Made by a program: the position numbers and the translations under genes. The notes under the pieces were generated by a model that was not told the origin of the DNA, did not search any database, and saw nothing but the letters and a program-made list of their open reading frames with translations. This document shows, piece by piece, positions 1 through 64,000 of a DNA stretch of 64,000 bases. Position 1 is the first letter of the stretch. Each line of letters starts with the position of its first letter. Source of the stretch: Escherichia coli (lineage in GTDB: Bacteria > Pseudomonadota > Gammaproteobacteria > Enterobacterales > Enterobacteriaceae). The stretch lies in assembly GCF_044324785.1 (NCBI RefSeq), contig NZ_CP172127.1. One strand, written 5' to 3'.

Positions 1-303
1 CTGTAGCGACTGGAGATAAGCATCGAAATAGAGCGGATCGTCGGTCAGTTGCAGGAAATTACCGAGATTAAGAGTGATGGAAAGTTGCCCGTCAGCCCAC
101 TCCATCAGTTCGGTATAAGGTGGAATGGCGCGCGCCATCTCCGCCAGGCTTATTTTAAAGACGATCAGAAATGGCAGCAGAAACAGCAGGATTAGCCAGA
201 TATAGGGCAGCGCAATCACCAGTTTGCGCCCATGCTTCATTTGCAACTGCGACAGCCACAGCTTAAAGGGTTTTGGCTGGGCAGCAGGTTCAAGTGTACT
301 CAT
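1..303 (-). CDS. potH: Putrescine ABC transporter permease PotH, N-terminal part only (gene continues past the window start)
   Basis: Reverse-complement of 241-303 translates MSTLEPAAQPKPFKLWLSQLQ, the PotH N-terminus; sits 10 bp downstream of the potG stop in the potFGHI operon arrangement. Confidence 0.9.
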   Translation of the reverse strand, partial: MSTLEPAAQPKPFKLWLSQLQMKHGRKLVIALPYIWLILLFLLPFLIVFKISLAEMARAIPPYTELMEWADGQLSITLNLGNFLQLTDDPLYFDAYLQSLQ

Positions 304-312
304 CTTTGCTCC

Positions 313-1446
313 TTAAACCGTCAGCACCACACAGCTGTCCACTTCCCAGCACAAACGCACTTCGTCGCCCCAGGTCGGTAACCCTTTACGATGACGATGG
401 GCGTTTTGTAGCTGGGCGCTAATCATCTGCCCACTTTTCAGACGAACGTGATACACCGAAAGATCGCCGAGATAGGCAATGTGTATCACCTCCCCCACCG
501 CGAAGTTACAACCATTGGCGGGCGGCTCTTCGCAAAGCATGATTTTTTCCGGACGCAGCGCTACGTGTACCGGCACGTTATCAACCACTGAAGCATCTGC
601 ATCGACTTTCAGTGGGTGCACCAGTCCCGGCGAATAAAGCACCAGACCATCTTCCTGACGCTCTTTGAGTACACCTTCAAAGACATTAACCGAACCGATA
701 AATTCAGCGCTATAGCGGGTGGTCGGATGCTCGTAGATCTCTTCCGGTTCGCCAATCTGGACAAATTTCCCACGATTCATAATGGCGATACGCCCCGCCA
801 TGGTCATCGCCTCTTCCTGATCGTGGGTGACCATCACACAAGTCACACCGACACGCTCCAGAATATCCACCACTTCAAGCTGCATCCGGTCACGCAGCTT
901 TTTATCCAGCGCGCCCATCGGCTCATCGAGCAGTAATAGTTTCGGGCGCTTGGCAAGGCTTCGGGCCAGTGCCACACGCTGTCGCTGACCACCGGAAAGC
1001 TGATGCGGTTTGCGTTTGGCGAACTCCTGCATATGCACCAGCCCGAGCATCTCATTGACCCGGCTGGCAATTTCCGCTTTCGGCAATTTGTCCTGTTTCA
1101 GGCCAAAAGCGATATTCTGTTCCACGGTCATATGCGGAAACAGCGCGTAAGACTGAAACATCATATTGATGGGGCGCAGGTAAGGCGGTACCTGTGACAA
1201 ATCGACGCCATCAAGCATTATCTGTCCGGCAGAAGGTTGTTCGAAACCTGCCAGCATACGCAGCAGCGTGGACTTGCCACAGCCGGATGCGCCCAGCAGC
1301 GCGAAGATTTCACCTTTGTAGATGGTCAGGCTGACATCATCCACCGCATGTTGACCATCGTAGGATTTGGTGAGGTTGCGGATTTCTAATAGCGGCGTCA
1401 GCGCCTTACGGGTTTTCGCCTGCGGGCGAGGGATAGCGTCATTCAC
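313..1446 (-). CDS. potG: Putrescine ABC transporter ATP-binding protein PotG (377 aa, GTG start)
   Basis: ORF 313..1527 contains Walker A GASGCGKST, LSGGQRQR signature and the PotG sequence from (V)NDAIPRPQAKTRK; start trimmed to the GTG that gives 377 aa. Confidence 0.92.
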   Translation of the reverse strand: MNDAIPRPQAKTRKALTPLLEIRNLTKSYDGQHAVDDVSLTIYKGEIFALLGASGCGKSTLLRMLAGFEQPSAGQIMLDGVDLSQVPPYLRPINMMFQSYALFPHMTVEQNIAFGLKQDKLPKAEIASRVNEMLGLVHMQEFAKRKPHQLSGGQRQRVALARSLAKRPKLLLLDEPMGALDKKLRDRMQLEVVDILERVGVTCVMVTHDQEEAMTMAGRIAIMNRGKFVQIGEPEEIYEHPTTRYSAEFIGSVNVFEGVLKERQEDGLVLYSPGLVHPLKVDADASVVDNVPVHVALRPEKIMLCEEPPANGCNFAVGEVIHIAYLGDLSVYHVRLKSGQMISAQLQNAHRHRKGLPTWGDEVRLCWEVDSCVVLTV

Positions 1447-1540
1447 GGCTGCTCTCCGGCATTGAATGTGTGCAAGCGCACCATAATGGTGCGAATTGCC
1501 GGCGGGTGTGGTGCGCCCGTCCGGCATCTACGACTGCGGA

Positions 1541-2653
1541 TTATTTTCCGCTCTTCACTTTGGTCCACGCGCGGGTGCGCACACGGTCTATTTTTGGATC
1601 CTGCACTTTCAGAGTGAACAACTTCGCACGAACGTCCGCCGGAGGATAAATCCCTGGATTATCACGCACTTCCGCACTCACCAGCGGCGTAGCTTCTTTG
1701 TTCGCGTTGGCATAGAACACATGGTCGGAAATATGCGCCACCACATCCGGGCGCAGCAGGTAATTCAGGAACTGATAGGCTTCGTCTTTATTTTTGGCAT
1801 CCGCAGGCATGGCGAAGACATCAAAGAACGCCATCGCCCCTTCTTTCGGAATCGAGAACGAGACATTAACGCCATTCTTCGCTTCCTTCGCGCGGTTTGA
1901 CGCCTGCCAGACATCGCCTGCCCAGCCGATAGCGACGCAGATATCGCCGTTTGCCAGGTCGTTAATGTATTGCGATGAATGGAAATAACGAATGTTCGGA
2001 CGCAGCTTTAACAGCAGATCGGTAGCCGGTCCGGTGTAATCATCCGCTTTAGTGCTGTTGGGATCTTTGCCGAGATAATTCAGCACGGTAGCAAAAACTT
2101 CTTCCGGTGCATCAAGGAAAGAGACGCCGCAGCTTTTCAGTTTTTCCAGATTTTCAGGCTTGAGGATCAAGTCCCAGCTATCGACGGGCGCGTTTTCGCC
2201 CAGCACCGCTTTGACTTTATCGACGTTATAGCCAATCCCGGTTGTCGCCCACATATAGGGCATAGCAAATTTATTATCCGGGTCGTGTTTGGCAACCAAC
2301 TTCAGCAGTTCCGGGTCGAGATTCTTCCACTCCGGCAATTTGCTTTTATCCAGCGGCTGGAAAACTCCCGCAGTCAACTGGCGTTCAAGAAAGCTTGCTG
2401 ACGGCACCACCAGGTCAAAGCCGGTGCTACCCGCCATTAATTTGCCTTCCAGTACTTCGTTAGAGTCGAAAACATCGTAGACGACTTTAATACCGGTTTC
2501 TTTTTCAAAATTGGCCACCGTGTCCGGAGCGATATAATCAGACCAGTTATAAATGTGGAGTGTTTTTTGTTCAGCCGCGAGCGTGCCGACAGAGACGGCC
2601 ATCAGAGCACCCGCAACCAGACCCGATAGCCATTTTTTATTTAAGGCGGTCAT
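1541..2653 (-). CDS. potF: Putrescine-binding periplasmic protein PotF (370 aa)
   Basis: ORF translation from MTALNKKWLSGLVAGALMAVSVGTLA (signal peptide) matches PotF; ATG at 2651-2653 complement. Confidence 0.93.
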   Translation of the reverse strand: MTALNKKWLSGLVAGALMAVSVGTLAAEQKTLHIYNWSDYIAPDTVANFEKETGIKVVYDVFDSNEVLEGKLMAGSTGFDLVVPSASFLERQLTAGVFQPLDKSKLPEWKNLDPELLKLVAKHDPDNKFAMPYMWATTGIGYNVDKVKAVLGENAPVDSWDLILKPENLEKLKSCGVSFLDAPEEVFATVLNYLGKDPNSTKADDYTGPATDLLLKLRPNIRYFHSSQYINDLANGDICVAIGWAGDVWQASNRAKEAKNGVNVSFSIPKEGAMAFFDVFAMPADAKNKDEAYQFLNYLLRPDVVAHISDHVFYANANKEATPLVSAEVRDNPGIYPPADVRAKLFTLKVQDPKIDRVRTRAWTKVKSGK

Positions 2654-2949
2654 ATCTCTTTCCTTCTGAAAGTTCGTTAACAAACGAACAAAAGTTGTCA
2701 CACTGAAAGATATGCAATAAACGTGCATATTTTTTATCGGCGCGGTGTAAGAAAAGAGAACTCTCTCCCGGCCAGCACTGCTCGCTATATAAAAGCATCG
2801 CAAGAATAACTTTAGCCAGGGTTTGAGACTATAGCTCGGATTAAAAAACGGTATTTAACAAATTTTTATGCGTATTTGCTCTATGTGATAAAGCCAAATC
2901 GGCACAAGAGAAGTGAAATAATCTTTAAGAAAAGGTTAAAAACAGCAGA

Positions 2950-2990
2950 TAATTTTGCAGCACGCAGTCACTGCGGCAGCGACTGCGTAC
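2950..2990 (-). terminator. Stem-loop downstream of ybjN (acgcagtcactgc / gcagcgactgcgt)
   Basis: Inverted repeat seen directly in the sequence just 3' of the ybjN stop on the minus strand. Confidence 0.4.
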
Positions 2991-3003
2991 TCGAAAGGAG
3001 TTA

Positions 3004-3480
3004 TCAGTGGAGGAAATAGTTTTCGGTAACGTTGTTTTGCCCTTCATCGTCAGTCGGTAACAGCAGTTGATGGGCATTAGCTTCAAGAATGACCATCGAA
3101 ATCTGCTCTTCGCTCTGACGCACGAACCATGCAAACTGCTCATAGGTTACGCCCTGCATAACGGATAAAGACTGGCAAACCACCAGCTTTGGCAGATTAT
3201 CATCCTGCATATCAAGAAATGCTTTCACGGTCAGCGAACTGGCATTGATGGCTGATAAATCCGCCGCCAGCGGCAATACGGCTGAAGGTCGGACTTCCGC
3301 CATGGCAGAAAACAGGATCGTGTTATCGATCAGATCGATTTTGGCATCAAAGACACCGTCGAAATTCTGCATATGGGGCAGATGCAGAGCCTGACAGTTA
3401 TCACATTCAAAAAAACTCATCCCCAGGTCATCGAGCCATTGACGCAGCGTATCCAGACCAGGAACGACCAGCGATGTCAT
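3004..3480 (-). CDS. ybjN: YbjN, putative sensory transduction regulator (158 aa)
   Basis: ORF translation from MTSLVVPGLDTLRQWLDDLGMSFFECDNCQALHLPHM matches YbjN; last gene of the ybjC-nfsA-rimK-ybjN cluster. Confidence 0.85.
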   Translation of the reverse strand: MTSLVVPGLDTLRQWLDDLGMSFFECDNCQALHLPHMQNFDGVFDAKIDLIDNTILFSAMAEVRPSAVLPLAADLSAINASSLTVKAFLDMQDDNLPKLVVCQSLSVMQGVTYEQFAWFVRQSEEQISMVILEANAHQLLLPTDDEGQNNVTENYFLH

Positions 3481-6617: not shown

Positions 6618-8303
6618 GTGAATATAAACGTCGCCGAATTGTTAAATGGGAATTACATTCTGTTATTATTTGTGGTCCTCGCGCTTGGGCTATGTCTCGG
6701 GAAATTACGACTTGGTTCGATCCAACTGGGTAATTCCATTGGCGTTTTGGTCGTATCACTGTTATTAGGCCAACAACATTTCAGCATTAACACCGACGCG
6801 CTTAATCTTGGCTTTATGCTGTTTATTTTCTGCGTCGGGGTCGAAGCCGGACCGAACTTTTTTTCCATTTTTTTTCGCGATGGGAAAAATTACCTAATGT
6901 TAGCACTGGTGATGGTTGGCAGTGCGCTGGTGATCGCCTTAGGGTTAGGTAAGCTGTTTGGCTGGGATATTGGCCTGACGGCCGGTATGTTAGCAGGCTC
7001 TATGACGTCAACACCGGTTTTGGTCGGTGCTGGCGATACACTGCGTCATTCCGGCATGGAAAGCAGGCAGCTCTCACTGGCACTGGATAATCTGAGCCTC
7101 GGGTATGCCTTAACCTATTTAATCGGTCTGGTGAGTTTAATTGTTGGTGCGCGTTACTTGCCGAAATTGCAGCATCAGGACTTACAGACCAGCGCCCAGC
7201 AAATCGCCCGCGAACGTGGCCTGGACACTGATGCCAACCGTAAGGTTTATTTACCGGTGATCCGCGCCTACCGCGTCGGCCCGGAGCTGGTAGCCTGGAC
7301 CGACGGCAAAAATCTGCGTGAACTGGGTATTTATCGACAAACTGGCTGTTACATTGAACGTATTCGGCGTAACGGGATTCTGGCAAATCCAGACGGTGAT
7401 GCCGTACTACAAATGGGCGATGAAATAGCGTTGGTAGGCTATCCTGACGCCCACGCCCGACTCGATCCCAGTTTCCGTAATGGCAAAGAAGTTTTCGATC
7501 GTGACCTTCTCGACATGCGTATCGTCACTGAAGAAGTGGTCGTTAAAAACCATAACGCTGTTGGCAAACGCCTGGCACAACTGAAGTTGACCGATCACGG
7601 TTGCTTCCTTAACCGCGTCATTCGTAGCCAGATTGAGATGCCGATTGATGACAACGTCGTGCTTAACAAAGGTGACGTTTTACAAGTCAGCGGCGATGCC
7701 CGCCGGGTAAAAACCATCGCCGATCGCATCGGCTTTATCTCGATTCACAGCCAGGTCACTGACTTGCTGGCATTCTGCGCCTTCTTTGTTATTGGGCTGA
7801 TGATCGGGATGATCACCTTCCAGTTCAGCACATTCAGTTTCGGTATGGGGAACGCTGCCGGGTTGTTATTCGCCGGAATTATGCTGGGCTTTATGCGTGC
7901 TAACCACCCGACCTTCGGTTACATTCCGCAGGGTGCATTAAGCATGGTGAAGGAGTTCGGCTTGATGGTGTTTATGGCAGGCGTTGGTCTGAGCGCTGGT
8001 AGCGGTATTAATAACGGCCTGGGCGCGATTGGCGGTCAGATGTTGATTGCCGGATTGATTGTCAGTCTGGTGCCCGTGGTTATCTGCTTCTTGTTCGGTG
8101 CTTATGTATTGCGAATGAACCGCGCACTGTTGTTCGGCGCAATGATGGGCGCACGCACCTGCGCGCCGGCAATGGAGATCATCAGTGATACAGCTCGCAG
8201 TAATATCCCGGCGCTGGGCTATGCGGGCACTTACGCAATCGCCAACGTCCTGCTGACGCTGGCAGGGACAATCATCGTCATGGTATGGCCAGGATTAGGA
8301 TAA
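6618..8303 (+). CDS. ybjL: YbjL, putative AAE-family transporter with TrkA-C domains (561 aa)
   Basis: 561-aa ORF with duplicated membrane domains flanking two cytoplasmic regulatory domains; length and context match YbjL. Confidence 0.88.
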
Positions 8304-8344
8304 AACTGAAGTTGCCCTGAAAATGAAATTTTTTTGCACAACCG

Positions 8345-8374
8345 CAGAACTTTTCCGCAGGGCATCAGTCTTAA
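8345..8374 (+). promoter_or_regulatory. Sigma-E-type promoter of rybB (-35 gaactt, -10 gtctta)
   Basis: ggaactt-like -35 and tctna-like -10 with about 16 bp spacing immediately upstream of the RybB 5' end; RybB is an established sigma-E-dependent sRNA. Confidence 0.6.
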
Positions 8375-8379
8375 TTAGT

Positions 8380-8458
8380 GCCACTGCTTTTCTTTGATGT
8401 CCCCATTTTGTGGAGCCCATCAACCCCGCCATTTTGGTTCAAGGTTGGTGGGTTTTTT
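8380..8458 (+). ncRNA. rybB: RybB small RNA (Hfq-dependent, represses OMP mRNAs)
   Basis: Sequence gccactgcttttctttgatgtccccattttgtggagcccatcaaccccgccattttggttcaaggttggtgggtttttt matches my recollection of RybB including the 3' terminator hairpin and U-run; lies in the ybjL-rcdA intergenic region as in K-12. Confidence 0.82.
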
Positions 8459-8477
8459 GTTATCTAAAATTTATCTA

Positions 8478-9014
8478 CTACCCTGCAACCCTCTCAACCA
8501 TCCTCAAAATCTCCTCGCGCGATAGCGGCTTACGGTCGGTGACAAAATGCAGCGTCATCCCCTCAATAAACGCATCAAGCGCGCGGGCGGTTCCGGGTTC
8601 AAACCATTGTTCGAGCGTTTGCTGACTGCGCTGCATCCAGTTTTGCATTACCGTTTTTAATAGCGGTTTTCGGCTAGCCAGCGCGTAGAGCTGGTACATC
8701 AGCTCCATGTTATCCGGCGTTGCAACCTGTGAGCTGTAAATCATATCGGTGATAGCCTGGCATGCGCCTTGAGCATCACTAACATCGCTAAAAAATGCCT
8801 GATATTGCCGGGACATGATCTCAGTAAAACTGCTGAACGCCTCCAGCAACAACTCATCAATTCCTGAAAAATAGTAGGTCATCGACCCCAACGGTACCCC
8901 GGCAAGGGTAGCAATTTTGCGGTGCGTAACAGCATGTATTCCATAAAGTTTCACCGCCTCCAGCGTGGCCTGGATAATTTTTTCTCGCCGTTGCGGATCG
9001 TTAGCGCGACGCAT
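8478..9014 (-). CDS. rcdA: TetR-family transcriptional regulator RcdA (YbjK), 178 aa
   Basis: ORF from [49 protein letters not shown] has a TetR-type HTH and matches RcdA. Confidence 0.85.
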
Positions 9015-37386: not shown

Positions 37387-38652
37387 ATGGCTTCTACTTT
37401 TACCAGCGACACATTGCCTGCCGATCACAAAGCAGCTATCCGTCAGATGAAGCACGCGCTGCGGGCGCAGCTTGGCGACGTCCAGCAGATCTTTAATCAG
37501 CTAAGCGATGACATTGCCACGCGAGTGGCTGAAATCAACGCACTCAAAGCACAGGGCGATGCCGTCTGGCCGGTGCTGTCTTATGCCGATATCAAAGCAG
37601 GTCATGTTACTGCAGAGCAGCGCGAACAAATTAAACGTCGCGGTTGTGCGGTGATAAAAGGCCATTTCCCCCGCGAACAAGCGCTAGGCTGGGATCAGTC
37701 GATGCTGGACTATCTGGACCGCAACCGCTTTGACGAGGTCTACAAAGGCCCCGGCGATAATTTCTTCGGGACACTCAGCGCTTCACGTCCCGAGATTTAC
37801 CCCATCTACTGGTCGCAGGCGCAAATGCAGGCCCGCCAGAGTGAAGAAATGGCGAATGTGCAGTCGTTTCTCAATCGTCTGTGGACATTTGAAAGTGATG
37901 GAAAGCAATGGTTTAACCCGGATGTGAGCGTCATCTACCCTGACCGTATCCGCCGCCGTCCGCCCGGAACGACCTCCAAAGGTCTTGGAGCGCATACCGA
38001 CTCCGGGGCGCTGGAACGCTGGCTGCTTCCAGCGTATCAGCACGTTTTCGCCAACGTCTTTAATGGCAATCTGGCGAAATACGATCCCTGGCATGCGGCA
38101 CATCGTACGGAAGTTGAAGAGTACACGGTGGACAACACCACCAAATGTTCCGTGTTTCGGACATTCCAGGGCTGGACAGCGCTCTCTGATATGCTGCCTG
38201 GTCAGGGGTTGCTGCACGTCGTGCCCATTCCTGAAGCCATGGCGTACGTACTGTTACGTCCGCTGCTTGATGATGTGCCGGAGGATGAACTGTGCGGCGT
38301 AGCGCCCGGAAGAGTGTTGCCGGTATCAGAGCAATGGCATCCACTGTTAATTGAGGCGTTAACCAGCATTCCAAAACTCGAGGCCGGAGACTCCGTCTGG
38401 TGGCACTGCGACGTCATCCATTCCGTTGCCCCCGTTGAAAATCAACAGGGTTGGGGCAACGTGATGTACATTCCTGCGGCACCGATGTGCGAGAAAAATC
38501 TTGCCTACGCGCACAAGGTGAAGGCCGCACTGGAAAAAGGCGCATCGCCGGGCGACTTCCCGCGCGAGGACTATGAAACAAACTGGGAAGGACGCTTTAC
38601 GCTTGCCGACCTCAACATTCACGGTAAGCGAGCGTTGGGAATCGACAGCTGA
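37387..38652 (+). CDS. ybiU: YbiU, DUF1479 protein (2OG-oxygenase-like), 421 aa
   Basis: ORF from MASTFTSDTLPADHKAAIRQMKHALRAQL... matches YbiU. Confidence 0.85.
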   Translation: MASTFTSDTLPADHKAAIRQMKHALRAQLGDVQQIFNQLSDDIATRVAEINALKAQGDAVWPVLSYADIKAGHVTAEQREQIKRRGCAVIKGHFPREQALGWDQSMLDYLDRNRFDEVYKGPGDNFFGTLSASRPEIYPIYWSQAQMQARQSEEMANVQSFLNRLWTFESDGKQWFNPDVSVIYPDRIRRRPPGTTSKGLGAHTDSGALERWLLPAYQHVFANVFNGNLAKYDPWHAAHRTEVEEYTVDNTTKCSVFRTFQGWTALSDMLPGQGLLHVVPIPEAMAYVLLRPLLDDVPEDELCGVAPGRVLPVSEQWHPLLIEALTSIPKLEAGDSVWWHCDVIHSVAPVENQQGWGNVMYIPAAPMCEKNLAYAHKVKAALEKGASPGDFPREDYETNWEGRFTLADLNIHGKRALGIDS

Positions 38653-39722
38653 GTGTCGTACAGCCCTTCCCGTTCCACGGCGGTGTTCCCTTTTCCTGGG
38701 CGAACCCGCCGCACTGACTCCCGCACCGCCAATCGTCCGTGCAGCAGCAGCGAGCCCACCGGAGCATCCGGGCGAATCAGCCGCTGTTGCAACATTTGCA
38801 CCGCTTCATTGCCTAGCTCATCGCGTGGCACATGCACAGCCGTCAGGGGAACATCCTCGATTGCCGCAAGGTTAAAGCCGTCGATACTCATCACCGAGAC
38901 ATCCTGTGGTACGCGCAGACCACGACGATGTAGCGCATTTACCGTTCCCGCCGCCATAAAATCCCCGCCGACCAGAAACGCCGTCGGCAACGTCTTGCCA
39001 TTGGCGGCATCCAGCCACGCTCCGACCTTTTCTTCCGCTTCTTTAGCGCTAAAACTGCTGATATTCAGCAAATGACGGTCATGGTGAAAGGCCAGATTAT
39101 GCTGACGCCATGATTCTTTAATCCCTGCAAACCGCTGCTCCATAGTGTAGCGGCGCAGGCACATCACATTCATCACCTCCCGGTGACCCATTTCAAACAG
39201 ATAGCGGGCGGCGAACGCGCCAATTAACCGATGGTCCGGCGCAATCGCCGGGAGGCGCATTCGTTCATCACGGCAGTTGATCAGCACACAAGGCTTAGCG
39301 AGATCGGCGGCCAGATCATGGATGTGCGGATCGTCAATCCCCAGCAGGATCGCCGCCTGCGTATCTGCTTCATTCATCCGCGAGAGAAATAGCGCGGGAT
39401 CGCTGTCAAACTCCTCCAGCGCGCAGTAACGCAGCCGCACTTCATGCGGCGATAACGCTTTGCTGATGCTCTGGATCACACGGTAATAAAAGATATCAGA
39501 TCGTTGGTCAAAAGCGCGTTGCGGCGCGAAAATAATCAGGTTGTTCAGCAACATACGACCTGCTGCCATGCCATCCATCACGCCCAACTCACGCGCGCAG
39601 GCCAGCACCTGTTCGCGAGCGCGTGCACTGGTATTCGCTTTGCCAGCCAGCACCCGCGAAACCGTACTCGGCGATAGCCCGGTACGTGCGGCGATATCGG
39701 CGATTTTCAGCTTCTTGTCCAT
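38619..39722 (-). CDS. LacI-family transcriptional regulator (accessory, not in K-12 at this position), about 367 aa with an unusually long C-terminal tail
   Basis: MDKKLKIADIAARTGLSPSTVSRVLAGKANTSARAREQVLACARELGV... is a LacI-type HTH followed by a periplasmic-binding-protein-like sugar domain; its 3' end overlaps the ybiU 3' end by 34 nt. Confidence 0.7.
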   Translation of the reverse strand: MDKKLKIADIAARTGLSPSTVSRVLAGKANTSARAREQVLACARELGVMDGMAAGRMLLNNLIIFAPQRAFDQRSDIFYYRVIQSISKALSPHEVRLRYCALEEFDSDPALFLSRMNEADTQAAILLGIDDPHIHDLAADLAKPCVLINCRDERMRLPAIAPDHRLIGAFAARYLFEMGHREVMNVMCLRRYTMEQRFAGIKESWRQHNLAFHHDRHLLNISSFSAKEAEEKVGAWLDAANGKTLPTAFLVGGDFMAAGTVNALHRRGLRVPQDVSVMSIDGFNLAAIEDVPLTAVHVPRDELGNEAVQMLQQRLIRPDAPVGSLLLHGRLAVRESVRRVRPGKGNTAVEREGLYDTQLSIPNARLP

Positions 39723-40016
39723 TTTGTGATCTGCCTCTAATTCGGAAATGACAGAATTTTCATGAGCAAAAAAGCCCATTCTGTCTGGCATTAAATCCAT
39801 TTCAGTAATGTATATCAGTCACTCATGGAAAAACGTGCACAAAACCCGCTTTCTTTCGCTTTTAGGGTCTCTTACTGTGAATTGGTAGAACAACTTCCAT
39901 ACAAAAATAATGGAAAAACGAACAACAAAGACTTTATTTATCAAAAAGTTAAAAGTGGTGTGACAACTCCATTCTGACGTTGCCGCACAAACCCTATACC
40001 ATTCTGTGGAGTGCAT
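39723..40016. promoter_or_regulatory. Divergent control region between the LacI-family regulator and the MFS-GH31 genes
   Basis: 294-bp AT-rich, ORF-free intergenic region between divergently oriented genes; position inferred, no operator identified. Confidence 0.4.
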
Positions 40017-41318
40017 ATGAGTCAGGGTATCAATAACGATATGACTGCCAGTAAACCGCGCCATATCGTCAAAAATCTGCGTTGGTGGATACTGGTCCTT
40101 TTTTTGCTCGGTGTTACTGTCAACTACATCACGCGTAACTCGCTGGGTATTCTCGCCCCCGAACTGAAAAGCAGCCTGGGGATTACCACCGAACAATATT
40201 CCTGGATTGTAGGTGCTTTCCAGCTCGCCTATACCCTATTCCAACCGTTGTGCGGATGGCTGATTGACGTCATTGGCCTCAAACTGGGCTTTATGATCTG
40301 CGCGGGACTGTGGGCACTGGCCTGTCTGATGCATGCGGGGGCGGGAAACTGGGTACATCTGGCGCTGTTGCGCTTCTTTATGGGCGGTGCGGAAGCCGCA
40401 GCAACCCCAGCAAACGCCAAAACCATCGGTGAATGGTTTCCAAAATCAGAACGCCCGATCGCCGCAGGCTGGGCAGGCGTCGGTTTTTCCATCGGTGCCA
40501 TGCTGGCCCCACCGATTATCTATTTTGCCCACGCTTCATTCGGCTGGCAGGGTGCATTTATGTTCACTGGCATCCTGGCGATGCTGTGGGTCGTGCTGTG
40601 GTGGGCGTTCTATCACAGCCCGGATAAGCATCCTAACCTCAGCAAAGCCGAGCTGGACTTTATTCGCCAGGATAACGAAGCGCCCCCGGTCAAGTTACCC
40701 TTTCTGACCGCACTGAAAACCGTGGGCAAAAATAAACGCTTTTACGGTATCGCTATCCCGGCCTTTATGGCAGAACCGGCGTGGGCGGTGATGAGTTTCT
40801 GGGTTCCGCTATACCTGTCCAAAACCTATGGCATGGACCTGAAGCAGATCGCATTATTCGCCTGGTTGCCGTTCCTCGCCGCTGATCTTGGCAGTATTGC
40901 CAGCGGCTATCTGACCAAACTTTACACCCGCCTGTTTGGGCTGAGTCGTGTGAACTCCGTTGTCGCATCATCGGTCAGTGGCGCATTCCTGATGGTTTCG
41001 CTGGCGGTGATGGCCTTTACCAATAACCCGTATATCGCCATCGTCCTTATCTCCATCGGCGGCTTCGGTCACCAGATCATCTCCTGCATGCTAAGCGCAC
41101 TGGTGGTGGAATCCTTCGACAAAGGTCAGATGGCCACTGTTAACGGCATGCGCGGTTCTGCCGCGTGGATCGCAAGTTTCCTGTTCTCCCTGATAATCGG
41201 GGTTACCGCAGACAAAATCGGCTTTAACCCCCTGTTTATCGCCATGGGCTTCTTTGACCTGATTGGCGCTTTCTTCCTGGTCACCTTTATTGCTGAACGT
41301 CGCGCAAAACGCGCCTGA
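40017..41318 (+). CDS. MFS transporter resembling the anion:cation symporter family (ExuT/GudP/DgoT-like), about 433 aa
   Basis: 12-TM ORF with N-terminal sequence ...NYITRNSLGILAPELKSSLGITTEQYSWIVGAFQLAYTLFQP typical of ACS-family transporters; RBS ggag 6 nt before the ATG at 40017. Confidence 0.7.
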   Translation: MSQGINNDMTASKPRHIVKNLRWWILVLFLLGVTVNYITRNSLGILAPELKSSLGITTEQYSWIVGAFQLAYTLFQPLCGWLIDVIGLKLGFMICAGLWALACLMHAGAGNWVHLALLRFFMGGAEAAATPANAKTIGEWFPKSERPIAAGWAGVGFSIGAMLAPPIIYFAHASFGWQGAFMFTGILAMLWVVLWWAFYHSPDKHPNLSKAELDFIRQDNEAPPVKLPFLTALKTVGKNKRFYGIAIPAFMAEPAWAVMSFWVPLYLSKTYGMDLKQIALFAWLPFLAADLGSIASGYLTKLYTRLFGLSRVNSVVASSVSGAFLMVSLAVMAFTNNPYIAIVLISIGGFGHQIISCMLSALVVESFDKGQMATVNGMRGSAAWIASFLFSLIIGVTADKIGFNPLFIAMGFFDLIGAFFLVTFIAERRAKRA

Positions 41319-41332
41319 GAGTGGATGTAAAC

Positions 41333-43696
41333 ATGAAAACGCTGAAAAACTGGACCCTGCACAAACAGTCTGCCCACCACGTTGAACTGCTGGTCGATGG
41401 CCAGCATATCCTGTGCCTGTACGTGCTGGAAGAAAATCTGTTCCGCGTGCTGTTAAAACGCAAAGGCGAGCTGGCGCTGGATCGCACCTGGAGCATTGCT
41501 CCGGCGCAGGATGTGCCATGGGAAGGGCGCAGCCGCGAAGATCTCAGCGGCTTTAGCCTGCCCGCGTGGACATTGATCCAGCACGACGACACCGTGGTTA
41601 TCGCCACCGAGTCACTGCGTGTCACCGTTCACCAGCCGCTGTGGCTGGAGTGGCACTATCGTAACAACGAAGGCGAATGGCTGCCGTTGGTGAATGACCG
41701 CCCGACCAGCGCTTATCTGCTGAATGCCCACGGCGATGGCGTGGCACACTATCAGAGCCGTCGTAAAGATGAACGCTTTTATGGCCTCGGAGATAAAGCC
41801 GGCGACCTGCAACGCAACGGTAAACGTTACGAGATGCGTAACCTCGACGCGATGGGCTACAACGCCGTTAGTACTGACCCGCTGTACAAACACATTCCAT
41901 TCACCATCACCCGCCGCGATGACATTAGCTTCGGCCTGTTTTATGACAACCTCAGCAGCTGCTGGCTGGATCTGGGCAACGAGATCGACAACTACCACAC
42001 CGCCTATCGCCGCTGGCAGGCGGAAGCGGGTGATATCGACTACTACCTGTTTACCGGCGAACGCGTACTTGATATCACCAAAGCCTTCGTACGCCTGACC
42101 GGAAAAACCCTGTTCGGACCGAAATGGAGCCTGGGCTACAGCGGTTCAACTATGCACTACACCGATGCGCCGGACGCACAAAATCAGTTGATGAACTTTA
42201 TCCGCCTGTGTGAAGAACATGCAATTCCCTGCGATTCGTTCCAGCTCTCTTCCGGTTATACCTCAATTAACGGCAAACGCTATGTGTTCAACTGGAACTA
42301 CGACAAAGTGCCGCAGCCGAAAGTGATGAGCCAGGCATTTCACAATGCTGGTTTGCACCTGGCCGCCAATATCAAGCCGTGCCTGTTGCAGGATCACCCA
42401 CGCTATAACGAAGTGGCAGAAAGAGGACTGTTCATCCGTGATTCAGAAACAGATGAACCAGAACGTTCCAGCTTCTGGGATGACGAAGGTTCTAACCTCG
42501 ACTTTACTAATCCGCAGACCATCCAGTGGTGGCAGGAAGGCGTGACCACACAGCTTCTGGAGATGGGTATCGACTCCACCTGGAACGACAACAACGAATT
42601 CGAAGTATGGGACGGTGAAGCACGCTGTCACGGCTTTGGTCAGACGATCGCGATCAAACATATTCGCCCAGTGATGCCACTGCTGATGATGCGAGCCTCG
42701 ATGGAAGCCCAGCAGCGTTTCGCTCCGGAAAAACGTCCGTACTTGATCTCCCGCTCCGGCTGCGCGGGAATGCAGCGCTACGTGCAGACCTGGAGTGGCG
42801 ATAACCGCACTAGCTGGGACACTCTGCGCTACAACACCCGCATGGGTCTGGGGATGAGCCTCTCCGGGTTGTATAACCTCGGTCACGACGTCGGCGGTTT
42901 CTCCGGTGATAAACCGGACCCGGAACTGTTTGTACGCTGGGTACAAAACGGCGTGATGCATCCGCGCTTTACGATTCACTCATGGAACGATGACCATACC
43001 GTAAACGAACCGTGGATGTATCCGGGCGTCACTCCGGCGATCCGCAGCGCTATTGAGTTGCGCTATCGCCTGCTGCCCTACTTTTATACCCTGATGTGGC
43101 AGGCATACGCCGATGATGAACCAATGCTACGTCCGACTTTCCTTGACCACGAGCACGACGTTCAGACTTTTGAAGAGTGTGATGACTTCCTGCTTGGTCG
43201 CGATATTTTGGTTGCCAGCGTCGTAGAGCAAGGCGAGCGCCAGCGCCGTGTATGGCTGCCAGATAACGAAACTGGCTGGTACGATTTCTACAACGGCGAA
43301 TGGTTCAGTGGCGGTCAGTGGATCACCCTCGACGCACCGCTGGAGAAACTGCCGCTGATGGTGCGTGCCGGGGCTGGTCTACCGCTCAGCAAACGCATCA
43401 CCTATGTGAGCGCAGAACAAGACGATACCCGCGAACTGAAACTGTTCCCGCTGAAAGGTGTGGGCACAACGTCCGGCCTGCTGTTTGAAGACGATGGCGA
43501 AAGCTGGGGCTACCAAACTGGTAATGCGCTTTGGGTGGAATGGGAAATGGTTTGCGATGGGGCGACCATCAACCTGAAAGTCAACGCGCGCGGGGATTAT
43601 CGTCCTGCATGGAGTGCACTGAAAGTGTCATTACCATTGGAAGAAAAACGCACGCTGCTGGTCAATGGTGTTGAAGGGAGTGAATGGATGCGTTAA
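41333..43696 (+). CDS. Glycoside hydrolase family 31 alpha-glycosidase (about 787 aa)
   Basis: Carries GH31 hallmark motifs: TWNDNNEF (catalytic nucleophile region), RSGCAGMQRY...WSGDN (acid/base region), GHDVGGF; tightly linked (2-14 bp) downstream of the transporter. Confidence 0.75.
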   Translation: MKTLKNWTLHKQSAHHVELLVDGQHILCLYVLEENLFRVLLKRKGELALDRTWSIAPAQDVPWEGRSREDLSGFSLPAWTLIQHDDTVVIATESLRVTVHQPLWLEWHYRNNEGEWLPLVNDRPTSAYLLNAHGDGVAHYQSRRKDERFYGLGDKAGDLQRNGKRYEMRNLDAMGYNAVSTDPLYKHIPFTITRRDDISFGLFYDNLSSCWLDLGNEIDNYHTAYRRWQAEAGDIDYYLFTGERVLDITKAFVRLTGKTLFGPKWSLGYSGSTMHYTDAPDAQNQLMNFIRLCEEHAIPCDSFQLSSGYTSINGKRYVFNWNYDKVPQPKVMSQAFHNAGLHLAANIKPCLLQDHPRYNEVAERGLFIRDSETDEPERSSFWDDEGSNLDFTNPQTIQWWQEGVTTQLLEMGIDSTWNDNNEFEVWDGEARCHGFGQTIAIKHIRPVMPLLMMRASMEAQQRFAPEKRPYLISRSGCAGMQRYVQTWSGDNRTSWDTLRYNTRMGLGMSLSGLYNLGHDVGGFSGDKPDPELFVRWVQNGVMHPRFTIHSWNDDHTVNEPWMYPGVTPAIRSAIELRYRLLPYFYTLMWQAYADDEPMLRPTFLDHEHDVQTFEECDDFLLGRDILVASVVEQGERQRRVWLPDNETGWYDFYNGEWFSGGQWITLDAPLEKLPLMVRAGAGLPLSKRITYVSAEQDDTRELKLFPLKGVGTTSGLLFEDDGESWGYQTGNALWVEWEMVCDGATINLKVNARGDYRPAWSALKVSLPLEEKRTLLVNGVEGSEWMR

Positions 43697-43875
43697 ATCA
43701 TTACCGGGGCCGGGAGGCGACTGCACCTTACCCGGTCCAGCCATCGAATCCTTTACCTCAGTATTTCACGCTGCAGGAAGGCAGCAAACCTGTAAACCCC
43801 GGGAGCTTAAATAAGTAAGTGACCGGGGTGAACAGGTGAAGCCAATGCATCTGCCGCATGAAAGACGGCGGGGAA

Positions 43876-45471
43876 TTAACCGTCGATCCCTTTACTACGC
43901 AGGTAATCTTCGTAATTACCGCTAAAGTCAATAACGCGTTCCGGGGTGATTTCCAGAATGCGGGTCGCCAGGGAGCTTACGAACTCACGGTCGTGTGAAA
44001 CAAAGATCAGCGTGCCCTGATACAGTTCCAGCGCCATGTTCAGCGACTCGATGGATTCCATATCCAGGTGGTTGGTCGGTTCGTCCATGATCAGAATGTT
44101 CGGCTTCTGCATCATTAACTTACCAAACAGCATCCGCCCTTTTTCCCCACCGGAAAGCACTTTCGCTGGTTTTTTGATGTCGTCCTGGCTGAACAGCAAA
44201 CGACCGAGAATGCTGCGTACCGCCTGCTCGTCATCGCCTTCCTGCTTCCACTGGCTCATCCATTCGAACACGGTCAGATCATTTTCAAACTCATATTCGT
44301 GGTCCTGAGCATAGTAACCAATGCGCGCGTTTTCAGACCATTTTACGGTGCCGCTGTCCGGTTGCAGATCGCCCACCAGCGTTTTCAGCAGCGTTGATTT
44401 ACCGACGCCGTTGGTACCCAGTACCGCAAGTTTTTCACCGACCTCCAGCAGCAGGTTGAGATTTTTAAACAGTGGACCGTTATCAAACCCTTTGGTCAGA
44501 CCTTCCACTTCCAGCGCGTTACGGAACAGTTTCTTATCCTGTTCAAAACGGATGAACGGGTTCTGACGGCTGGAGGCTTTCACCTCTTCCAGTTTGATTT
44601 TATCAATCTGGCGCGCGCGCGAAGTTGCCTGGCGAGATTTCGAGGCGTTGGCGCTAAAGCGGCTAACGAAAGATTGCAGCTCAGCAATCTGCGCTTTCTT
44701 CTTGGCGTTATCAGCCAGCAGACGTTCACGCGCCTGGGTCGCCGCCGTCATGTACTCATCGTAGTTGCCCGGATAAACGCGCAGCTCGCCGTAATCCAGA
44801 TCCGCCATATGGGTACAAACCATGTTAAGGAAGTGACGGTCGTGCGAGATGATGATCATGGTGCTGTCACGCTCGTTCAGCACCTGTTCCAGCCAACGAA
44901 TGGTGTCGATGTCGAGGTTGTTGGTCGGTTCGTCGAGCAGGAGAATGTCTGGATCAGCAAAAAGCGCCTGTGCCAGCAGCACACGCAGCTTCCAGCCAGG
45001 AGCAACTTCACTCATCGGGCCGTAGTGCTGTTCCACTGGAATTCCCACGCCAAGCAACAATTCACCGGCGCGAGCTTCCGCAGAGTAACCGTCCATTTCG
45101 CCGTATTTCACTTCCAGATCGGCCACTTTATAGCCGTCTTCTTCACTCATTTCCGGCAAAGCATAGATGCGGTCACGCTCCTGCTTCACTTCCCACAACT
45201 CTTTATGCCCCATGATCACCGTATCCAGCACAGTGAACTCTTCAAAGGCAAACTGATCCTGACGCAGCTTACCAATGCGCTCGTTGGGATCGAGGGAAAC
45301 GTTACCCAACGTCGGCTCTAAGTCGCCGCCGAGGATCTTCATAAAGGTGGATTTACCACTACCGTTCGCGCCAATCAGGCCGTAACGGTTGCCGCCGCCA
45401 AATTTGACGGAAATGTTTTCAAACAACGGCTTACTGCCGAACTGCATGGTGACGTTACTGGAAACTAACAC
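43876..45471 (-). CDS. ybiT: ABC-F family ATPase YbiT (tandem ABC domains), about 530 aa, GTG start
   Basis: (M)[41 protein letters not shown]... two ABC cassettes without a TM domain; matches YbiT. Confidence 0.9.
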
Positions 45472-50467: not shown

Positions 50468-50983
50468 TTAGAAGCGGTAACCAACACCGGCAATCCAGGT
50501 GCCTACGTCAACGCTACGAATACGGCTCTGCTCGTAAGAGAAGTCCAGAGCAACGTTTTCCATCGGGTTGAACTGCAGACCAGCACCGTAGGAGAAACCG
50601 TAGTCGCTGGTGTCGTGTTTGTAGGTCGGGTATTCAGTGGTCTGGAATTTACCATAACCCACACCCACTACACCGTAGATGCTTGCCCAGTCGTTAATGC
50701 GGTAAGCCGGACCAGCAGTGATGCCGTAGTACTGGTTTTTGTTGTAGTCACCAGAGCTTGCAGTACGGCTTTTCTCGGTGTAAGTGAAAGAACCGATCAC
50801 ACCCAGCGGGCTGTTGTCTTCTTCATAGCGGTATTTCAGGTTGAAACCGCCCATTTTGTTCATTTGGCCCTGAGCGTCGCTCTGTGCGTAACCGCCAGTT
50901 ACGGTAGAAGTCGCAGCTACGGAAGTACCTGCGGTGAAAGCCAGAACTGCGGCCAGTGCTGAAAGACATGCAATTTTTTTCAT
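50468..50983 (-). CDS. ompX: Outer membrane protein X (171 aa)
   Basis: MKKIACLSALAAVLAFTAGTSVAATSTVTGGYAQSDAQGQMNKMGGFNLKYRYEEDNSPLGVIGSFTYTEK...IAGVGYRF matches OmpX including the C-terminal Phe. Confidence 0.95.
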   Translation of the reverse strand: MKKIACLSALAAVLAFTAGTSVAATSTVTGGYAQSDAQGQMNKMGGFNLKYRYEEDNSPLGVIGSFTYTEKSRTASSGDYNKNQYYGITAGPAYRINDWASIYGVVGVGYGKFQTTEYPTYKHDTSDYGFSYGAGLQFNPMENVALDFSYEQSRIRSVDVGTWIAGVGYRF

Positions 50984-59757: not shown

Positions 59758-62040
59758 ATGGAAAACAATCGCAATTTCCCTGCCAGACAATTTCATTCGC
59801 TCACGTTCTTTGCCGGTCTTTGTATTGGCATCACGCCTGTGGCTCAGGCACTCGCCGCCGAAGGGCAAGCAAACGCGGATGACACGCTGGTTGTCGAAGC
59901 ATCAACGCCTTCGCTTTATGCGCCACAACAATCTGCTGATCCGAAATTCTCGCGTCCGGTAGCGGATACTACCCGCACGATGACGGTGATTTCTGAACAA
60001 GTGATTAAAGATCAGGGCGCAACCAACCTTACCGACGCGCTCAAAAACGTCCCCGGCGTGGGTGCGTTTTTTGCGGGTGAGAACGGTAACTCCACCACTG
60101 GCGACGCCATTTATATGCGTGGTGCCGATACCTCTAACAGTATTTATATTGATGGCATTCGCGATATCGGCAGCGTCTCGCGCGACACCTTCAATACCGA
60201 GCAGGTCGAAGTGATTAAAGGGCCGTCCGGCACCGACTACGGGCGCAGCGCACCGACGGGCTCGATCAATATGATCAGCAAGCAGCCGCGCAATGACTCA
60301 GGCATTGACGCCTCCGCGAGTATTGGCAGCGCCTGGTTCCGCCGCGGCACGCTGGACGTCAATCAGGTCATTGGTGATACCACTGCGGTGCGCCTGAATG
60401 TGATGGGTGAAAAAACGCACGATGCCGGACGCGACAAAGTCAAAAATGAGCGTTACGGCGTCGCCCCTTCTGTCGCTTTTGGCCTTGGCACAGCGAATCG
60501 TTTGTATCTTAATTATCTACATGTCACCCAGCACAACACGCCAGACGGCGGCATTCCGACCATCGGTTTGCCGGGCTATTCTGCCCCATCTGCGGGAGCG
60601 GCGGCCCTGAATCATTCCGGAAAAGTAGATACGCATAACTTTTATGGCACGGATTCCGATTACGACGATTCGACCACCGATACCGCTACCATGCGTTTTG
60701 AGCACGATATCAACGATAACACCACCATTCGCAATACTACCCGTTGGTCGCGCGTGAAGCAGGATTACCTGATGACGGCGATTATGGGCGGGGCGTCGAA
60801 TATTACCCAGCCCACCAGCGATGTGAATAGCTGGACCTGGTCACGCACGGCGAATACTAAAGATGTGAGTAATAAAATTCTCACCAACCAGACCAACCTG
60901 ACCTCGACGTTCTATACCGGTTCTATCGGTCATGATGTCAGTACCGGCGTGGAATTTACCCGTGAAACGCAGACTAACTACGGCGTTAATCCGGTGACGT
61001 TACCTGCGGTAAATATTTATCATCCTGACAGCAGCATTCATCCCGGCGGCCTGACGCGCAACGGCGCAAACGCCAATGGTCAGACGGATACCTTCGCAAT
61101 TTACGCTTTCGATACGCTGCAAATCACCCGTGATTTTGAGCTGAACGGCGGGATCCGTCTGGATAATTATCATACTGAATATGACAGTGCCACCGCCTGC
61201 GGCGGCAGCGGACGCGGTGCCATCACCTGCCCTGCTGGCGTGGCAAAAGGTTCTCCGGTCACCACCGTCGATACCGCCAAGTCGGGCAATCTGGTGAACT
61301 GGAAAGCCGGGGCGCTGTATCACCTGACGGAAAACGGCAATGTCTATATTAACTATGCTGTTTCCCAGCAGCCTCCGGGCGGCAACAACTTCGCCCTTGC
61401 GCAGTCTGGCAGCGGTAACAGTGCCAACCGCACCGATTTTAAACCGCAAAAAGCCAACACCAGCGAGATTGGCACCAAATGGCAGGTTCTGGATAAACGC
61501 CTGTTGCTCACCGCCGCGCTGTTCCGTACTGATATCGAAAATGAAGTTGAGCAAAATGATGACGGAACTTACTCGCAATACGGTAAGAAACGCGTCGAAG
61601 GCTATGAGATATCCGTGGCCGGGAATATCACTCCCGCGTGGCAGGTGATTGGCGGCTATACCCAGCAAAAAGCAACCATCAAAAACGGCAAAGATGTTGC
61701 CCAGGATGGTTCCTCATCGCTGCCGTATACCCCGGAGCACGCCTTTACCTTATGGAGCCAGTATCAGGCAACCGATGATATTTCCGTTGGTGCGGGCGCA
61801 CGCTATATCGGCAGTATGCATAAAGGTTCTGACGGCGCGGTGGGAACGCCAGCGTTTACCGAAGGTTATTGGGTCGCCGACGCTAAACTGGGGTATCGGG
61901 TTAATCGCAATCTCGACTTCCAGCTAAACGTCTACAACCTGTTTGATACCGATTACGTCGCCTCAATCAACAAGAGCGGCTACCGTTATCACCCGGGCGA
62001 GCCAAGAACCTTCCTGCTCACGGCCAATATGCATTTCTGA
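59758..62040 (+). CDS. fiu: TonB-dependent catecholate siderophore receptor Fiu (760 aa)
   Basis: Signal peptide, plug domain and beta-barrel ending ...[11 protein letters not shown] (C-terminal aromatic residue) match Fiu. Confidence 0.9.
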
Positions 62041-63765: not shown

Positions 63766-64000
63766 GCACAGAAAACCCCCAGCTAGGCTGGGGGTTCCGG
63801 AAAGCTTTCAGCTTTGAGCCAGTTATTAAAACCCCTTTTGATTTGTTAAAACACCTTGCGGTCTGGCAACTGCAAGTGTCAAACAAGAAATCAAAAGGGG
63901 GTCCCAATGGGGGACGAAAAGAGCTTAGCGCACACCCGCTGGAACTGTAAATATCACATAGTTTTTGCGCCGAAATACCGAAGACTGGCGTTTTACGGAG
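63766..64000 (+). mobile_element. Left end of an IS200 insertion sequence (IS200/IS605 family), truncated by the window end
   Basis: Two hairpins characteristic of the IS200 left end (cccccagctaggctggggg, then a stem sequestering the RBS: ccccttttgatttgtt...aacaagaaatcaaaaggggg) followed by the tnpA start; IS200 is absent from K-12 as far as I recall. Confidence 0.75.
63907..64000 (+). CDS. tnpA: IS200 transposase TnpA (HUH Y1 transposase), N-terminal 31 codons only
   Basis: Translation MGDEKSLAHTRWNCKYHIVFAPKYRRLAFYG matches the conserved IS200 TnpA N-terminus. Confidence 0.8.
   Translation, partial: MGDEKSLAHTRWNCKYHIVFAPKYRRLAFYG

Follow-up and report, generated by a model that had tools for sequence, protein, structure and literature searches.

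Identification and genomic context of rybB

The window, which is the whole 64,000-nt stretch of DNA analyzed here, is of E. coli origin and runs collinear with K-12 from position 896445 down to 837437. The following genes were identified at the locus of interest:

6618-8303, + strand, ybjL, with Asp-Al_Ex/TrkA_C domains
8380-8458, + strand, rybB, the 79-nt RybB small RNA, placed by alignment to K-12 b4417 and by the Rfam family RF00110
8478-9014, - strand, rcdA, TetR family

Only two above-threshold matches, RybB and STnc490, were returned when the whole window was scanned against Rfam. The RybB match (RF00110), at 8383-8461 (+), extends over the entire model (positions 1-79) and has a score of 104.8 bits (E-value, 1.7e-20), far above the gathering score of 40; the model begins 3 nt inside the RNA and extends 3 nt beyond its end. 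An alignment with K-12 rybB (b4417, 79 nt) confirmed this assignment, as 77 of the 79 RNA bases are the same and positions 8296-8434 of the window, which take in the promoter and RNA nt 1 to 55, match K-12 exactly. The two RNAs share their locus, length, promoter, first 55 nt, and terminator architecture, and differ by two substitutions in the 3' hairpin (C56U and A69G in the window) and by one position within the 16 nt that follow the U-tail. In the K-12 record b4417 is annotated as a 79-nt noncoding RNA between rcdA and ybjL, and the order ybjL-rybB-rcdA in the window corresponds to b0847-b4417-b0846. The Salmonella gene is likewise located between ybjL and ybjK/rcdA (PMC1804206).

A sequence-only reading of this DNA had claimed that the promoter, body, and terminator of RybB are intact between ybjL and rcdA. 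All three were found, and the range that it gave, 8345-8458, is accurate, beginning immediately ahead of the -35 element and ending at the final U of the tail; the covariance-model scan and K-12 alignment that it had proposed as checks gave the results described above. Thus, the RybB sequence identity and the K-12 neighborhood are established in the window, the promoter and the 5' pairing region are both intact, and 8380-8458 (+) is almost certainly the chromosomal rybB of an E. coli strain. All features that define RybB at the sequence level are present (covariance-model score, 5' pairing region, terminator, sigma-E-type promoter, and gene neighborhood), and no observation spoke against the identification. 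The gene is already known, being an ordinary member of a thoroughly characterized family at its expected locus.

Searches of complete E. coli genomes identified rybB in 5,418 of 5,426, and the sequence of strain 2020CK-00188 was 100% identical to the window over 401 nt, with an unchanged layout. Eight of the 5,426 genomes gave no match, and seven matches were on plasmid records. The sequence-only reading had also listed the gene on the grounds that gene tracks would miss it, and this proved correct: the RefSeq/PGAP records of other E. coli strains lack any annotation at this place, with no feature under the rybB match in 30 of 30 records among the matches listed, and only the curated K-12 MG1655 record carried a rybB annotation among the E. 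coli records compared. As automated RefSeq annotation leaves rybB unmarked, a covariance-model scan is needed to reveal the gene. The importance of the finding beyond correct annotation is slight, since RybB is a textbook regulator of the envelope stress response and would be expected in any E. coli genome.

The putative sigma-E-type promoter

Upstream of rybB, the following elements were recognized:

8320-8335, + strand, A/T-rich block aaaatgaaattttttt, upstream of the -35 element
8346-8354, + strand, putative -35 element AGAACTTTT, matching the consensus at 8 of 9 positions and the same as in K-12
8368-8374, + strand, putative -10 element GTCTTAA (hexamer GTCTTA at 8368-8373), the same as in K-12

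The published sigma-E consensus consists of GGAACTTTT at -35 and GTCAAA at -10 (PMC1804206). The hexamer GTCTTA matches the latter at four of six positions; K-12 has the identical hexamer, Salmonella has GTCATA in place of GTCTTA, and the two mismatches of the window fall on columns that are variable across species. A spacer of 16 nt separates GAACTT from the -10 element, which ends 6 nt ahead of the K-12 start base G8380 and is therefore in the correct register. Within the 64-kb window, GAACTT-N16-TCTNA was matched a single time, at 8347-8373, compared with an average of 0.07 matches in shuffled sequences.

To these matches can be added the conservation seen when 114 sequences (the window and 113 other Enterobacterales species) were aligned on the start site. 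GAACTTT (-33 to -27) was 98 to 100% conserved and a T-run at -48 to -46 was 91 to 94% conserved, while G-12, T-11, C-10, A-7, and T-1 were invariant and A-6 was present in 94%; the window promoter matched every column with a conservation of at least 90%. The A/T-rich block at 8320-8335 is possibly an UP-like element. A scan for sigma-70 promoters found none on the + strand upstream of rybB, which fits a sigma-E promoter. On the basis of these motifs the rybB promoter appears to be of the sigma-E type; its dependence on sigma-E is taken from the K-12 and Salmonella literature. The rybB promoter is reported to be among the strongest sigma-E promoters (PMC12249550).

The 5' pairing region and terminator hairpin

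Three features were delineated within the RNA:

8380-8395, + strand, 5' target-pairing region GCCACUGCUUUUCUUU, identical to K-12
8416-8452, + strand, terminator hairpin from the minimum free energy (MFE) fold, with a 10-bp stem formed by 8416-8425 and 8443-8452
8453-8458, + strand, U6 tail of the intrinsic terminator, read from the sequence

To survey the 5' end across species, one genome per species was scanned for a 23-nt RybB sequence (nt 3 to 25). Exact copies were identified in at least 120 Enterobacterales species, ranging from Escherichia to Yersinia, Serratia, Xenorhabdus, Proteus, and Providencia. Nucleotides 1 to 25 were invariant across the 41 distinct sequences aligned, but as 23 of these 25 made up the search pattern, the invariance of nt 3 to 25 follows from the way in which the loci were retrieved. 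The pairing region GCCACUGCUUUUCUUU was unpaired in the MFE fold except for a weak 4-bp closing helix. It has been reported that a 16-nt 5' fragment (RybB-16) anneals to ompD, that the C2G change abolishes this pairing, and that Hfq accelerates RybB annealing more than 200-fold (PMC4911921).

The fold of the whole RNA was modestly better than that of shuffled sequences (z = -2.2), as would be expected because the 5' half of RybB is deliberately unstructured. The RybB terminator escaped a generic terminator scan because its loop is longer than the 8-nt limit of the scan, and folding and covariation were used instead. From the analysis of the 41 distinct sequences it was found that pairing held in 96.1% of the cells of the 10-bp stem, compared with 20 to 48% for control stems slid along the alignment, and that 7 of the 10 stem pairs had compensatory changes on both sides. 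On four of five covariation measures none of 500 shuffles reached the observed value; on the fifth, the number of further pair types, 25 of the 500 did. The terminator stem is thus supported by covariation. The T-run was kept in all aligned RybB homologues, and by analogy with the RybB literature the U6 tail is the expected Hfq-binding 3' end.

The U56/G69 allele

The two substitutions relative to K-12 are both in the terminator hairpin:

8435, + strand, C56U, in the terminator loop
8448, + strand, A69G, converting the stem pair U41-A69 to U41-G69

To place this form among other E. coli strains, alleles were counted as exact matches in 5,420 complete E. coli records. The K-12 allele, which is also the RNA sequence of Salmonella enterica subsp. 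arizonae, was present in 4,497 records and the C56/G69 allele in 739, while the U56/G69 allele of the window was present in 151 (2.8%) and no record among the 5,420 carried U56/A69. Based on these counts, U56/G69 is a nested, lineage-specific minority form.

Both differences could matter if, in a gene that is otherwise rybB, a weaker or reshaped hairpin changed termination, Hfq binding, or the stability of the RNA and thereby made RybB levels differ from those in K-12. Their position in the terminator hairpin, the rarity of the full U56/G69 combination (151 of 5,420 records), and the absence of G69 from the 113 other species aligned, the stems of which stay Watson-Crick or compensate, are in keeping with such an effect. 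However, A69G retains the pair as G-U, and the predicted energy of the hairpin shifts by only 0.2 kcal/mol, from -21.1 kcal/mol in K-12 to -20.9 kcal/mol in the window. Moreover, U at position 56 occurs naturally in other genera, the promoter and 5' pairing region are unchanged, and G69 is carried by 739 plus 151 of the 5,420 complete E. coli records (16%), a frequency that argues against a harmful effect. A functionally altered allele is therefore very unlikely, and C56U and A69G most likely serve as neutral markers of a lineage.

The prophage attachment site at the 3' end of rybB

P2-like (Felsduovirus) prophages have a known attachment site at the 3' end of rybB (PMC3032704 Table 2; PMC10121019 hotspot #29). 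In the window this site is empty:

8448-8474, + strand, empty P2-like prophage attachment site, comprising the last 11 nt of rybB and the next 16 nt

The stretch between rybB and rcdA was broken just after rybB in approximately 1,200 of 5,422 E. coli genomes (~22%). A P2-like prophage of 34.3 kb accounts for the break in strain 95-3322; the integrase adjoins rcdA, and ogr and gpD adjoin rybB. This prophage is bounded by a 27-nt direct repeat, ATGGGTTTTTTGTTGCCTGAAATTTAT, which starts at RybB nt 69, and the final 11 nt of rybB are thereby replaced by a phage-borne copy. The site in the window matches 23 of the 27 bases of the lysogen repeat. P2-like markers also adjoined rybB in 8 of 120 loci from other species.

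Across 102 nonlysogenic Enterobacterales species, the 13 nt that follow the U-tail (8459-8471), consisting of G or A followed by TTGCCTGAAATT, were 60 to 100% conserved, with conservation falling to approximately 30 to 40% beyond them (loci L006 to L125). Both the window and K-12 depart from this form at three positions, reading GTTATCTAAAAT. Heterogeneity of the 3' end, a binding site, and repeated resetting by phage recombination are possibilities that might account for the conserved 13 nt, which could point to an undescribed function just past the annotated 3' end of rybB. The window combines U56 and G69 with the K-12-like ATCTA form of these nucleotides. The core begins at position 69, and because only 23 of its 27 bases are shared by the window, the rybB 3' end found here might integrate phage poorly. 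It is nevertheless improbable that the minority allele together with ATCTA has a selectable effect, whereby drift or selection away from the phage would have left the site a poor substrate for P2-like integration.

Alternatively, the 3' end of rybB in the window might be nonnative, that is, a hybrid left by the integration of a P2-like phage, either as a prophage junction or as a scar. The attachment repeat starts exactly at nt 69, the site of one of the two substitutions, and the ~1,200 interrupted genomes show how often the rybB-rcdA stretch is entered. Against this, rybB continues straight into rcdA without phage genes, a layout shared by 2020CK-00188 over the 401 nt at 100% identity, and the phage copy has A, not G, at position 69. 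In addition, both junctions of the 95-3322 prophage carry GTTGCCTGAAAT where the window has the K-12-like GTTATCTAAAAT, and neither phage-type sequence (GTTGCCTGAAATTTATGC...) nor an integrase was found within a few kilobases of 8458. Given the contiguity into rcdA and the nonphage form of the core, a prophage-derived 3' end was ruled out as extremely unlikely, and the end is read here as that of a native rybB.

A sequence resembling the downstream motif GTTGCCTGAAAT was noted on the other side of the gene: GTTGCCCTGAAA at 8311-8322, 69 nt upstream of the rybB start. It was confined to the genus Escherichia, occurring in the window, in E. albertii, and in Escherichia sp. strain E1V33. The possibility that this upstream GTTGCC(C)TGAAA copy at -69 is a duplicated att-like sequence was set aside, as it is restricted to Escherichia, without wider conservation, and is probably a coincidence.

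Mechanically called open reading frames (ORFs) of 43 to 71 amino acids overlap rybB on both strands:

8295-8432, - strand, from the ORF list
8394-8525, + strand, from the ORF list
8410-8625, + strand, from the ORF list

That the region instead encodes a small protein, or that its resemblance to RybB arose by chance, has a negligible probability despite these ORFs, which were set aside as mechanical, given the Rfam E-value of 1.7e-20, an RNA-like pattern of conservation (an invariant 5' end, compensatory changes in the stem, and frame-breaking indels in the loop), and the lack of an annotated protein gene at this place in K-12.

Expected regulation by RybB and its targets in the window

Control of RybB by sigma-E, its omp mRNA targets, and the decay of these mRNAs have been established in Salmonella (PMC1804206). 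Sigma-E-dependent transcription, with accumulation of RybB during envelope stress or stationary phase, has been published for both K-12 and Salmonella, and Hfq-dependent repression of omp mRNAs, including ompC and ompW, for homologues whose 5' end is identical. We infer sigma-E dependence, Hfq binding, and the list of targets of the RybB in the window from the published K-12 and Salmonella work. By analogy, an accumulation of unfolded outer-membrane proteins would release sigma-E, and RNA polymerase carrying it would start at G8380 by way of the -35 (8346-8354) and -10 (8368-8374) elements, with transcription stopping at the hairpin and U6 terminator (8416-8458). The 79-nt RybB would then bind Hfq, and its single-stranded 5' end (approximately the first 16 nt) would pair with the mRNAs of outer-membrane proteins, blocking their translation and speeding their decay; this would lower the envelope load and feed back on sigma-E. 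Some targets, ompD among them, are restricted to Salmonella.

Two other sigma-E-dependent small RNAs are comparable. MicA (SraD) resembles RybB in belonging to the sigma-E regulon, in having a sigma-E promoter and an intrinsic terminator, in binding Hfq, and in pairing through its 5' end, and Table 1 of PMC8534726 lists ompA, lamB, tsx, and ompW as targets common to both. However, the sequence of MicA is unrelated to that of RybB, its locus is between luxS and gshA, and ompX is on its target list but not on that of RybB. MicL, the third sigma-E-dependent small RNA, binds Hfq and relieves envelope stress as RybB does (PMC4102768); unlike RybB, it arises from within cutC, is processed, has the single target lpp, and shows no sequence relation.

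Two outer-membrane protein genes in the window were considered in relation to RybB:

50468-50983, - strand, ompX
59758-62040, + strand, fiu, a catecholate-siderophore outer-membrane receptor and a listed RybB target

The sequence-only reading had remarked that ompX, as a likely target of RybB, lies in the same window. Its presence was confirmed, but its status as a target was not borne out. In Salmonella, ompX mRNA served as a RybB-independent control that was stable or increased on RybB induction (PMC1804206, Papenfort et al. 2006), and the E. coli targets of Gogol et al. 2011, as given in Table 1 of PMC8534726, place ompX under MicA and CyaR. The same table includes fiu among the E. coli targets of RybB. 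Duplexes predicted between the first 25 nt of RybB and gene leaders, a simple comparison against shuffles that offers weak evidence, pointed in the same direction: the best duplex for ompX (-14.3 kcal/mol) was weaker than the shuffle mean (-16.0 kcal/mol), whereas a duplex of -21.1 kcal/mol was predicted for the fiu leader at -73 to -39, with 2.4% of shuffles as good. These predictions may do no more than corroborate the literature on ompX and fiu. With the literature and a duplex prediction lacking signal both against it, ompX was ruled out as a RybB target, and the real link of the window to RybB is fiu rather than ompX.

Other features of the window

The second Rfam match marks the left end of an IS200 element:

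63774-63897, STnc490, 146.4 bits, at the left end of the IS200 element, which runs to the end of the window at 64000

The tnpA gene of this element belongs to the IS200/IS605 family. The element is inserted just past ybiJ/ybiE, at a place occupied in K-12 by the end of hcxB and the ZbiJ small RNA, and the same insertion at this position was identified in 2 of 5,426 E. coli genomes, one of them strain N3.

A second difference from K-12 is a 5.2-kb insertion between ybiU and ybiT (38646-43882), in which three genes were identified:

38619-39800, - strand, LacI-family regulator
40011-41318, + strand, MFS transporter
41321-43696, + strand, GH31 glycoside hydrolase

From this gene content, the ybiU-ybiT insertion looks like a small sugar-utilization island.
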